Assembly: GCA_964016885.1 (NCBI GenBank)
Contig: OZ024743.1
Location: 352,470,001-352,534,000 of the forward strand
Source of the DNA: Eledone cirrhosa
Taxonomy: Eukaryota
Direction of reading: 5' to 3'
Length of the DNA: 64,000 bases
The stretch's first letter is position 1; every line of letters starts with the position of its first letter. The position numbers and the translations under genes are program-made. The notes beneath the pieces are model-generated. The model worked only from the letters and a program-made list of their open reading frames with translations, was not told where the DNA came from and searched no databases. This document shows positions 1 through 7,947 of this stretch, piece by piece.

Positions 1-3000
1 ATATATATATATATATGCATGCTACTGTACGTCTGTATACATATATATTTGTACGTATACATACATACTTACATTTAAGTAAGTGCCATACTAAGAGTGA
101 GAAATGAAATTTCGTTTTCATTTTTTTCAACTTATCGTTTTCGGTATGCCTGACCGATTTAACTCACTCAATATGCAAATTAGGCTGCTCAGCCGTTAAT
201 TTTCATAAGGAAAGTATATACTTTCGAACGTTCAACTATCTGGCAGATGGGTAAACGGTGCTGATGATAGCTAACAAGCTTGAAACTAGTACATCGTTCC
301 TGTGTCAGTGTTGAACAAAAAGGTGACGTGGTTGCCTTAACACCGTATGGCATAAATTCAGGCTGTTCGATTTGTTGACAAACAAACGAAAGCGGCCGGC
401 GTTATAATAAACGCCGGCTAAACTGATGCGTGCATATATGTATGTGTACCTGTATGCATATGTGTATATATATATATATATATATATATATATATATATA
501 TATATATATATATATATATATATATATATATATATGCATGCTACTGTACATCTGTATACATATATGTATGTACGTATACATACATACTTACATTTAAGTA
601 AGTGCCATACTAAGAGTGAGAAATGAAATTTCGTTTTCATTTTTTTCAACATATAGTTTTCGGTATGCCTGACCGATTCAACTCCCTCAATATGCAAATT
701 AGGCTGCTCAGCCGTTAATTTTCATAAGGAAAGTATATACTTTCGAACGTTCAACTATCTGGCAGATGGGTAAACGGTGCTGATGATAGCTAACAAGCTT
801 GAAACTAGTACATCGTTCCTGTGTCAGTGTTGAACAAAAAGGTGACGTGGCTGCCTTAACACCGTATGGCATAAATTCAGGCTGTTCGCTTTGTTGACAA
901 ACAAACGAACAAAGCGGCCGGCGTCATAATAAACGCCGGCTAAACTGATGCGTGCATATATGTATGTGTACCTGTATGCATATGTGTATATATATGTATA
1001 TATATATATATATATATATATATATATATATATATATATATATATATATATATATATATATATGTGTACCTGTATGCATATGTGTATATATATGTATATA
1101 TATATATATATATATATATATATATATATATATATATATATATATATATGCATGCTGCTGTACGTCTGCATACATATATGTATGTACGTATACATACATA
1201 CTTACATTTAAGTAAGTGCCATACTAAGAGTGAGAAATGAAATTTCGTTTTCATTTTTTTCATCTTATCGTTTTCGGTATGCCTGACCGATTTAACTCAC
1301 TCAATATGCAAATTAGGCTGCTCAGCCGTTAATTTTCATAAGGAAAGTATATACTTTCGAACGTTCAACTATCTGGCAGATGGGTAAACGGTGCTGATGA
1401 TAGCTAACAAGCTTGAAACTAGTACATCGTTCCTGTGTCAGTGTTGAACAAAAAGGTGACGTGGTTGCCTTAACACCGTATGGCATAAATTCAGGCTGTT
1501 CGCTTTGTTGACAAACAAACGAACAAAGCGGCCGGCGTTATAATAAACGCCGGCTAAACTGATGCGTGCATATATGTATGTGTACCTGTATGCATATGTG
1601 TATATATATGTATATATATATATATATATATATATATATATATATATATATATATATATATATATATATATATATATATATATATATGCATGCTACTGTA
1701 CGTCTGTATACATATATGTATGTACGTATACATACATACTTACATTTAAGTAAGTGCCATACTAAGAGTGAGAAATGAAATTTCGTTTTCATTTTTTTTC
1801 AACTTATCGTTTTCGGTATGCCTGACCGATTTAACTCACTCAATATGCAAATTAGGCTGCTCAGCCGTTAATTTTCATAAGGAAAGTATATACTTTCGAA
1901 CGTTCAACTATCTGGCAGATGGGTAAACGGTGCTGATGATAGCTAACAAGCTTGAAACTAGTACATCGTTCCTGTGTCAGTGTTGAACAAAAAGGTGACG
2001 TGGTTGCCTTAACACCGTATGGCATAAATTCAGGCTGTTCGCTTTGTTGACAAACAAACGAACAAAGCGGCCGGCGTTATAATAAACGCTGGCTAAACTG
2101 ATGCGTGCATATATGTATGTGTACCTGTATGCATATGTGTATATATATATATATATATATATGCATGCTACTGTACGTCTGTATACATATATGTATGTTC
2201 GTATACATACATACTTACATTTAAGTAAGTGCCATACTGAGAGTGAGAAATGAAATTTCGTTTTCATTTTTTTCAACTTATCGTTTTCGGTATGCCTGAC
2301 CGATTTAACTCACTCAATATGCAAATTAGGCTGCTCAGCCGTTAATTTTCATAAGGAAAGTATATACTTTCGAACGTTCAACTATCTGGCAGATGGGTAA
2401 ACGGTGCTGATGATAGCTAACAAGCTTGAAACTAGTACATCGTTCCTGTGTCAGTGTTGAACAAAAAGGTGACGTGGTTGCCTTAACACCGTATGGCATA
2501 AATTCAGGCTGTTCGCTTTGTTGACAAACAAACGAACAAAGCGGCCGGCGTTATAATAAACGCCGGCTAAACTGATGCGTGCATATATGTATGTGTACCT
2601 GTATGCATATGTGTATATATATGTATATATATATATATATATATATATATATATATATATATATATATATATATATATATATATATATATGCATGCTACT
2701 GTACGTCTGTATACATATATGTATGTACGTATACATACATACTTACATTTAAGTAAGTGCCATACTAAGAGTGAGAAATGAAATATCGTTTTCATTTTTT
2801 TTCAACTTACCGTTTTCGGTATGCCTGACCGATTTAACTCACTCAATATGCAAATTAGGCTGCTCATCCGTTAATTTTCATAAGGAAAGTATATACTTTC
2901 GAACGTTCAACTATCTGGCAGATGGATAAACGGTGCTGATGATAGCTAACAAGCTTGAAACTAGTACATCGTTCCTGTGTCAGTGTTGAACAAAAAGGTG

Positions 3001-6000: not shown

Positions 6001-7947
6001 CTATCTGGCAGATGGATAAACGGTGCTGATGATAGCTAACAAGCTTGAAACTAGTACATCGTTCCTGTGTCAGTGTTGAACAAAAAGGTGACGTGGTTGC
6101 CTTAACACCGTATGGCATAAATTCAGGCTGTTCGCTTTGTTGACAAACAAACGAACAAAGCGGCCGGCGTTATAATAAACGCTGGCTAAACTGATGCGTG
6201 CATATATGTATGTGTACCTGTATGCATATGTGTATATATATATATATATATATATATATATATATATATATATATATATATATATATATATATATATATA
6301 TATATATATATATATGCATGCTACTGTACGTCTGTATACATATATGTATGTACGTATACATACATACTTACATTTAAGTAAGTGCCATACTAAGAGTGAG
6401 AAATGAAATTTCGTTTTCATTTTTTTTCAACTTATCGTTTTCGGTATGCCTGACCGATTTAACTCACTCAATATACAAATTAGGCTGCTCAGCCGTTAAT
6501 TTTCATAAGGAAAGTATATACTTTCGAACGTTCAACTATCTGGCAGATGGGTAAACGGTGCTGATGATAGCTAACAAGCTTGAAACTAGTACATCGTTCC
6601 TGTGTCAGTGTTGAACAAAAAGGTGACGTGGTTGCCTTAACACCGTATGGCATAAATTCAGGCTGTTCGCTTTGTTGACAAACAAACGAACAAAGCGGCC
6701 GGCGTTATAATAAACGCCGGCTAAACTGATGCGTGCATATATGTATGTGTACCTGTATGCATATGTGTATATATATGTATATATATATATATATATATAT
6801 ATATATATATATATATATGCATGCTACTGTACGTCTGTATACATATATGTATGTACGTATACATACATACTTACATTTAAGTAAGTGCCATACTAAGAGT
6901 GAGAAATGAAATTTCGTTTTCATTTTTTTTCAACTTATCGTTTTCGGTATGCCTGACCGATTTAACTCACTCAATATGCAAATTAGGCTGCTCAGCCGTT
7001 AATTTTCATAAGGAAAGTATATACTTTCGAACGTTCAACTATCTGGCAGATGGGTAAACGGTGCTGATGATAGCTAACAAGCTTGAAACTAGTACATCGT
7101 TCCTGTGTCAGTGTTGAACAAAAAGGTGACGTGGTTGCCTTAACACCGTATGGCATAAATTCAGGCTGTTCGCTTTGTTGACAAACAAACGAACAAAGCG
7201 GCCGGCGTTATAATAAACGCCGGCTAAACTGATGCGTGCATATATGTATGTGTACCTGTATGCATATGTGTATATATATGTATATATATATATATATATA
7301 TATATATATATATATATATATATATATATATATATATGCATGCTACTGTACGTCTGTATACATATATGTATGTACGTATACATACATACTTACATTTAAG
7401 TAAGTGCCATACTAAGAGTGAGAAATGAAATTTCGTTTTCATTTTTTTCAACTTATCGTTTTCGGTATGCCTGACCGATTTAACTCACTCAATATGCAAA
7501 TTAGGCTGCTCAGCCGTTAATTTTCATAAGGAAAGTATATACTTTCGAACGTTCAACTATCTGGCAGATGGGTAAACGGTGCTGATGATAGCTAACAAGC
7601 TTGAAACTAGTACATCGTTCCTGTGTCAGTGTTGAACAAAAAGGTGACGTGGTTGCCTTAACACCGTATGGCATAAATTCAGGCTGTTCGCTTTGTTGAC
7701 AAACAAACGAACAAAGCAGCCGGCGTTATAATAAACGACGGCTAAACTGATGCGTGCATATATGTATGTGTACCTGTATGCATATGTGTATATATATGTA
7801 TATATATATATATATATATATATATATATGCATGCTACTGTACGTCTGTATACATATATGTATGTACGTATACATACATACTTACATTTAAGTAAGTGCC
7901 ATACTAAGAGTGAGAAATGAAATTTCGTTTTCATTTTTTTCAACTTA
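1..7947 (+). repeat. Tandem array of ~0.47-0.61 kb units, each with a hammerhead ribozyme motif and an internal (TA)n tract; retrozyme-like or non-autonomous PLE-like; begins before the window
   Basis: Near-identical unit recurs with CTGATGA cores at 261, 780, 1394, 1933, 2407, 2936, 3436, 3937, 4499, 5016, 5510, 6026, 6561, 7064 and 7582. Length differences come mostly from (TA)n. The array ends mid-unit at ~7947 into (TA)n. Confidence 0.97.
254..298 (+). ncRNA. Type I hammerhead ribozyme (representative of 15 array copies)
   Basis: Stem I AACGGTG/CATCGTT (one G-U), core CTGATGA, stem II AGCT-AACA-AGCT preceded by a U-U, GAAA, palindromic stem III ACTAGT, predicted cleavage after GUA at 291. 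Confidence 0.85.

Follow-up and report, generated by a model that had tools for sequence, protein, structure and literature searches.

How does a non-coding repeat with a hammerhead ribozyme (HHR) come to stand in long head-to-tail arrays, and at many places of one genome? The question is raised by a window of 64,000 nucleotides from the Eledone cirrhosa assembly GCA_964016885.1 (contig OZ024743.1; G000:C4:352470001-352534000 of a 3.0-Gb genome), and positions below follow the window numbering. A sequence-only reading of this window had described a tandem array of ~0.5-kb HHR units at 1-7947 and proposed a candidate retrozyme, mobilised by the reverse transcriptase (RT) of a Penelope-like element (PLE). 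We consider it probable that this is a dispersed non-coding HHR repeat whose predicted circular monomer is copied many times by a PLE RT/endonuclease, followed by duplication of DNA blocks in place. By sequence criteria (an HHR in every unit, non-coding, dispersed) the array is supported as a retrozyme without long terminal repeats (non-LTR). The idea of a non-autonomous family with PLE-type mobilisation gains support from the dispersal, the fixed ends, the two arms and the lack of an open reading frame (ORF).

The window contains 15 HHR cores, all on the + strand and none on the - strand, which start at 261, 780, 1394, 1933, 2407, 2936, 3436, 3937, 4499, 5016, 5510, 6026, 6561, 7064 and 7582. 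The head-to-tail units of the earlier reading are therefore confirmed, but the stem III palindrome that it assigned to each unit is present in 14 of the 15 only, unit 11 (5510) having ACUGGU in place of ACUAGU. Cleavage is predicted after the GUA triplets, as had been proposed, with ends at 291, 810 and so on to 7612 and monomers of 474-614 nt. The extent of the array had to be corrected: it starts at G000:C4:352454465, 15.5 kb to the left of the window, and comprises 45 HHRs in 23.5 kb on one strand with monomers of 474-639 nt, an assembly count in which an error in unit number is possible. The left end, like the right one, lies inside a long (TA)n tract. The absence of coding capacity was borne out by the lack of any ORF of 150 or more amino acids within 1-7947, and the GC content of 0.33-0.35 agrees with the definition of retrozymes as non-coding with GC <45%.

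Two-armed insertions and their templates

The earlier reading had suggested a genome-wide search for dispersed copies. Such a search finds 23,085 exact matches of a 34-nt core, a lower bound, and none of the reversed pattern; one exact 3' junction with a single poly-T length is found at 442 places of the genome (control, 0). From these 442 junction places we took the first 100 as a sample of insertions, which is biased, as a single 3' junction with a single poly-T length served as its anchor, and which includes two pairs of near-duplicate rows. What can be read directly at these loci is their anatomy, with its fixed ends, its two arms and its shared variants. Two opposed, outward-facing multimeric arms are seen in 67 of the sampled insertions, 29 are one-armed, 3 are complex and 1 was too short to match. 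In 54 of the 67 two-armed cases the inverted arm stops at unit position 62-65. The end of the direct arm at 122-124 is set by the sampling anchor, and the 13 loci that were found without this anchor end there as well. On either side the insertion stops in (TA)n with a sense-3' end, the two ends lying ~60 nt from each other in the unit, and the far flank is (TA)n in 61/65 two-armed and 23/32 other cases. The long end comes after a hairpin and a U-rich stretch and the short end is a hairpin loop; the related families B and C, described below, use the same positions.

Such a layout is the signature of PLEs, in which an inverted 5'-truncated copy, a tail at one end and a bias towards (TA)n have been described (PMC8557442), together with two internal RT start sites and the extension of both strands (PMC11167929). 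The 70 inversion junctions show an overlap in 37 (33 by 1-10 nt, 4 longer), are blunt in 1 and carry inserted bases in 32. The junction across the predicted cut site is seamless in 313/314 pieces, and only 1 of 146 5' ends falls within 276-286 against 3.6 expected; intact cut-site junctions and 5' ends that avoid the cut favour a ligated circle over end-to-end jumping. At L074:~975-1016 (G000:C1:75297803) we also observed a ~42-nt insertion in (TA)n that consists of the ends alone, with 14 nt of the inverted short end and 28 nt of the long end.

Whether both arms stem from one template was examined in 106 insertions (96 of the 100 sampled and 10 others), with the poly-T and one indel-rich hairpin excluded. 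Ten private variants, in 9 insertions, are common to both arms, and a single one is fixed in one arm only. The unit distance between arms (0.0061) is close to that within an arm (0.0064), compared with 0.0194 between insertions, and unit length, determined by (TA)n, is insertion-specific (Kruskal p 1e-9, 13 insertions). In locus L082 (G000:C1:125.83 Mb) two unit types, of 544 and of 500 nt, take turns along both arms (7 + 7 units). This is the pattern expected from a dimeric circle, of which L082 is a candidate copy.

On the HHR strand, the insertion-wide variants comprise 17 A>G and 6 T>C changes among 39 sites (p 0.02), a count that includes recurrent and possibly inherited sites, while the singleton variants are symmetric (A>G 37 vs T>C 28 of 318). 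The share of A>G among strictly private variants is higher than among singletons (p 0.006). The long AU-rich hairpin of the unit holds 12 of the 17 A>G sites but 27 of 108 A (p 2e-5) and none of the 6 T>C sites, and 13 of the 17 insertion-wide A>G sites are preceded by U. The A>G sites of the hairpin fall at unit positions 12, 25, 27, 33, 41, 45, 47, 51, 59, 61, 428 and 440. A bias to A>G inside a long hairpin and after U is the pattern expected of A-to-I editing, and we describe these changes as ADAR-like editing scars, as their sequence pattern suggests. Private A>G changes are present in 13/13 pieces of L026/27 and 10/10 of L271, and in both arms. Since edits on a linear multimer would vary unit by unit, edits in all units of both arms require a single-unit template.

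The window array shows a different, later history. Compared with the majority sequence of the array, its units carry ~2.1 substitutions per 414 nt in a symmetric spectrum (7 A>G and 7 T>C), and variant types recur as ordered blocks: units 5-11 follow the order c g h a f d b, which returns near 29-36, and the block f d b is seen five times, whole or partial, along the array. Two multi-variant signatures are confined to it (4/4 and 3/3 genome matches). From the recurring blocks and these signatures found only here, a roughly fourfold growth by DNA-level duplication from about 10-12 units follows. The window array was also considered as a source of new copies and was rejected for the two signatures, all genome matches of which lie inside the array itself.

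The hammerhead and the fold of the unit

In unit 1 the HHR is composed of stem I (255-260/292-297), the core CUGAUGA (261-267), stem II (269-272/277-280), GAAA (282-285) and the palindromic ACUAGU (285-290), with predicted cleavage after A291. Stem II has four pairs, and its base is a U.U mismatch and not a pair. An Rfam scan, one of the checks proposed earlier, gave no hammerhead match at the gathering score (HH9 reached 18.5 bits against 52 needed; clan CL00010), and miRNA matches in the window were rejected as (TA)n artefacts. As the Rfam models stay below the gathering score, the HHR call rests on motif and covariation. In 32 distinct genome copies 93.3% of the stem cells pair and 13 of the 29 pairs are changed on both sides; these copies were chosen by the core pattern, which makes the invariance of the core circular but not the covariation of the stems. 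None of 500 shuffles reaches the observed value, although relatedness of the copies inflates this test, and slid partners pair in 32-44%. Four contig runs of unknown kind contain the family, very deep in one and as traces in three, and were not used for range or expression; in the deep run, where copies are unselected, common variants within 1933-1963 occur only at core position 7 and in loop II. Preferential conservation of the core, which the sequence-only reading expected in dispersed copies, holds between subfamilies, but young copies have 11/2627 mismatches in the core and 289/45895 in the rest, which is not significant.

Stem III has a single pair closed by a palindromic tetraloop. By predicted energies it costs +5.4 kcal/mol when forced in the monomer, whereas the ACUAGU duplex has -4.8, and from this model dimeric cleavage can soundly be inferred. 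Axolotl HHRs with either of the two weak features, a one-pair stem III or U.U below stem II, cleave as monomers to 6% or 22% and much better as dimers (PMC7229834), and such weak motifs would cut multimers while sparing monomeric circles (PMC4209133). A weak monomer with a stronger dimer may thus fit a stable circular template. The U.U position is unpaired in 25/32 copies. In the minimal HHR of PLEs helix II has 7-8 bp, helix I is short and an unpaired base precedes G10.1-C11.1 (PMC4209133), whereas here helix II has 4 bp, U.U stands at 10.1-11.1 and helix I has 6 bp with a long extension. The motif is a canonical metazoan type I HHR and not a PLE minimal HHR.

Other parts of the unit are listed in Table 1. 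The motif ATGCAAAT, which we take to be octamer-like, is retained in families A (the present one), B and C, where its spacing to the HHR is similar, and the TATATA hairpin 5' of the HHR in families A and C. An snRNA-type promoter is known from newt satellite 2; the promoter idea here is based on the loci in hand and not on a genome-wide count of octamer and HHR pairs, and both motifs may instead be kept as RNA stems. A bacterial promoter/terminator scan of the window, which is not relevant to this DNA, found nothing. The hypervariable (UA)n tract noted within the units is indeed present and forms the predicted tip of the long AU-rich hairpin. Circular folding of A1 (474 nt), A3 (422) and B (469) gives the same branch order, with z of -9.0, -6.8 and -7.4 (30 shuffles each).

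Sister subfamilies at 83-87% identity carry short TA tracts. The more distant family B (L151/L152 at G000:C1:163575910, L170-L199) has a 469-nt unit and a homologous fold with compensatory changes, and in its HHR stem II rests on a canonical G-C pair, with the same ACUAGU palindrome and a GUA or GUC triplet. Its tail is ~72 nt and it has no (TA)n tract, which indicates that this tract is not needed for mobility or targeting. Family C is a third non-coding HHR family, with one unit at 43345-43660 (+) of the window, a unit of ~370 nt, a palindromic AUGCAU stem III and the octamer-like and TATATA motifs. Its two 3' ends are ~41 nt apart, and tandem and inverted copies stand at many loci, with 2839 first-look candidates. 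It was considered as a possible PLE pseudo-LTR (pLTR) and rejected as another non-coding tandem family; by inspection, an attached PLE ORF was seen in 0/30 family C loci. HHR-like motifs of type I with different stems, at least five in number, are seen at L076, L081, L093, L099, L103 and L106 and point to many HHR-bearing repeat families in this genome.

Table 1. Features of the window array and its units, in window positions
Feature	Position	Strand	Basis
Right-hand third of the one-armed head-to-tail array, 15/45 HHR units	1..7946	+	motif positions, flanking sequence
Octamer-like motif, candidate internal promoter element	173..180	+	conserved; also in predicted stem
Small TATATA-centred inverted repeat, candidate TATA box or RNA hairpin	210..225	+	sequence, predicted fold
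Extended, bulged stem I, ~20 further pairs (230-236/310-316, 240-251/299-308)	230..316	+	covaries between subfamilies, z -3.15
Type I HHR of unit 1, motif repeated in every unit	255..297	+	motif, covariation, folding energies
Long AU-rich hairpin, tip = hypervariable (UA)n tract (465-535 in unit 1)	428..590	+	predicted fold
Short-end site, unit position 62-65, small-hairpin loop; inverted arms of sister insertions end there	7887..7890	+	insertion survey, fold
~60-nt tail separating the two family-wide 3' ends	7888..7946	+	
Long-end site, fixed 3' junction of the array, unit position 122-124, AT microhomology with target	7946..7948	+	exact-junction search
(TA)n target microsatellite at the right end of the array	7947..7986	.	

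A proposed cycle and the alternatives

The cycle that fits our data would start with a read-through RNA in which dimeric HHRs cut after GUA. The resulting ~470-640-nt monomer would be ligated into a highly structured circle, and ADAR would edit its long AU hairpin. The PLE protein would nick both (TA)n strands and prime on each of them at a different internal site, the two sites lying ~60 nt from each other, and each RT would run round the same circle, leaving either two opposed concatemers joined at short microhomologies or, as in the window array, one arm. The window array would have been born as ~10-12 identical units, gained DNA mutations (~0.5% per unit) and then reached 45 units by unequal exchange of multi-unit blocks. 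The RNA steps and the enzyme we infer from the sequences. With somewhat less assurance we also favour the more specific form of this explanation, in which a telomerase-related PLE RT performs rolling-circle reverse transcription of one ADAR-edited circle on both (TA)n strands from two structure-defined sites, so that the edits and the (UA)n length of the template serve as a bar code of each insertion, and the window array shows the following stage, in which such a concatemer turns into a higher-order satellite. If this is true, the two models published for retrozyme arrays belong together, with circle copying as the birth and unequal crossover as the ageing of one locus.

Several observations weigh against this explanation. 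The HHR combines two weak features in one motif, the one-pair stem III and the U.U below stem II. The window array has neither an inverted arm nor an array-wide private variant, and its birth from one circle is for this reason deduced from the sister insertions. Among the strictly private shared variants the skew falls short of significance (9 A>G and 5 T>C among 28, p 0.30), the stronger counts being those that include the recurrent sites. The earlier reading had pointed to a PLE sharing the pLTR, and none was found among three young PLE families when their 3' regions were compared with units A1, A2, A3, B and C; matches to the pLTR/3' regions of these families were only low-complexity or masking artefacts. 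In the anole PLE system, uncleaved RNA predominated as substrate, and insertion was not impaired when the HHR was mutated (PMC11167929).

One alternative is that PLE insertion starts from long, uncleaved read-through RNA of arrays that are already homogeneous, with an HHR that rarely cuts and circles that are not the template. In its favour, the anole PLE uses mainly uncleaved RNA in vitro (PMC11167929), the HHR is weak, and seamless junctions and the lack of 5' ends at the cut site fit equally well. We hold it to be unlikely, as edits of a linear multimer would differ between units, yet the private A>G changes are found in all pieces of L026/27 and L271; homogeneous new variants would still need a bottleneck of one unit (two in L082) at some step; and the 45-unit array, an ideal linear source, has no daughters for its two signatures. 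Another option is that the monomer is cut and stays linear while the RT jumps repeatedly from end to end, which makes it in effect a functional but unligated circle. Here the homogeneity from one template and the editing scars are explained equally well, and one deletion ends at the cut site (L030), but indels or 5' ends at the cut are expected from such jumps. Among 314 pieces a single breakpoint is seen there, where the background is 1.8 per 8 nt, and among 146 5' ends just one, which makes this option quite improbable.

The family could also be mobilised by a long interspersed element (LINE) through twin priming and not by a PLE. Young intact LINE ORFs are present, for example at 10069-13692 of the window, and inversions with microhomology are known for L1. 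There is, however, no poly-A or 3' repeat tail, and on both sides the insertion ends in (TA)n at a fixed internal sense-3' site, as do the RT/GIY-YIG elements of this genome, and we regard a LINE as a very improbable agent. As to a plain satellite, in which single pLTR-derived units are deposited, all arrays grow by unequal crossover and the ribozyme is a passenger, it has been proposed for animal retrozymes (10.64898/2026.07.22.740005), it holds for the later growth of the window array, and the young copies show no excess of core conservation. Yet such a history cannot account for opposed arms that agree in private variants and in (TA)n length, and it leaves the strand-biased A>G changes and the cross-family covariation of RNA structure unexplained. 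The both-arm test (10 vs 1) largely refutes it, and we give it hardly any probability.

Coding elements and known systems

Elements with coding capacity show a comparable anatomy in this genome. An element with an RT + GIY-YIG ORF has the same two-ended layout and a microsatellite/AT-rich target in common with the present family, and the arm pairs L344/L345 and L304/L301 of coding elements use different ends. The C-terminal parts of two young PLE families have at least 150 near-identical genome copies each. The second PLE ORF matches no Pfam family, and its identity as a PLE comes from motifs read by eye and from the insertion anatomy. A Neptune-like family shows a similar layout of hairpin and U-rich stretch before the long end, and a third PLE family a similar tail length (~60 nt); neither likeness is significant. 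Within the window, a PLE-like relic with 98-99% identity to L293 has opposed 3' arms at 8762-9598 (-) and 14789-15315 (+) with different ends in (TA)n, and an HHR-like motif at 15166. Between these arms stands an intact 1207-aa LINE frame (10069-13692, -) with APE, RT and C-terminal C2H2 zinc fingers. PLE-like fragments with GIY-YIG-like C-terminal motifs, read by eye, are seen at 23193-23816 (+), 44069-44524 (+) and 17156-18443, the first two without a Pfam match. A tRNA-like gene at 53026-53098 (+; Ala, AGC by ARAGORN; Rfam 49 bits) is possibly the head of a short interspersed element.

The closest known systems are the metazoan non-LTR retrozymes of coral, mussel and axolotl, with newt satellite 2 (Cervera and de la Pena, 2020, PMC7229834), which likewise are tandem, non-coding, low-GC units with one type I HHR each, found as dimers to large multimers and with a branched fold. 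Stem III is laid out as in the axolotl HHR_Amex1 and the U.U at stem II is as in HHR_Amex2, whereas the present family joins both features in one motif. Expression was shown for those retrozymes. The variable (UA)n hairpin tip is a feature of this family and not of theirs, and the accessible text of PMC7229834 does not describe fixed double 3' ends, opposed arms or editing-like scars. The units had been called larger than those typical of animal retrozymes; with 474-639 nt, against ~170-400 nt in the retrozymes just named and a typical but not strict range of 150-450 bp, they stand at the upper edge, but such a size is not unprecedented, as the sister families have 422 and 469 nt and the pDo500 satellite of the cricket Dolichopoda (PMC2837043) is a ~500-bp HHR tandem unit, with single or double hammerhead cleavage and compensatory changes. 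It was described as satellite DNA, and insertion anatomy is not part of the account of it that we consulted.

Endonuclease-bearing (EN+) PLEs (Craig et al., 2021, PMC8557442; anole Poseidon, Frangieh et al., 2024, PMC11167929) share with the present family the 5' truncation, the inverted 5'-truncated copy, the tail at one end, the two internal RT start sites and the microsatellite targets, and non-autonomous Chlamys elements such as MRC1 share the multicopy head-to-tail arrangement. In contrast to these, here there is no ORF, the tail is ~60 nt against 30-40, the HHR is canonical and not minimal, and a single template can give rise to long multimers in both arms. Animal retrozymes regarded as derivatives of PLE pLTRs (Li, Clavereau, Pollet, 2026, 10.64898/2026.07.22.740005) are also non-autonomous and co-occur with active PLEs, and their local growth by unequal crossover matches the late history of the window array; here, by contrast, arrays are born multimeric, and no pLTR homology to the three tested PLE families is found. 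The main text of that work mentions neither molluscs nor cephalopods. In the open-access text of these works, supplements aside, we did not find a description of a two-armed, single-template, edited-RNA anatomy with a later higher-order satellite.

How animal hammerhead repeats spread has been an open question since newt satellite 2. Two proposals exist, the copying of retrozyme circles by a PLE RT (PMC7229834) and local amplification (10.64898/2026.07.22.740005), neither of them shown in the text of these sources that we consulted. The sister insertions described here provide sequence evidence for circle copying as the birth step and the window array for local amplification as a later step, and for the PLE protein a substrate, two priming sites and a target can now be named. 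An RT that would processively copy a circle for many kb into a defined microsatellite bears both on the mechanism of PLEs and on the origin of satellites.

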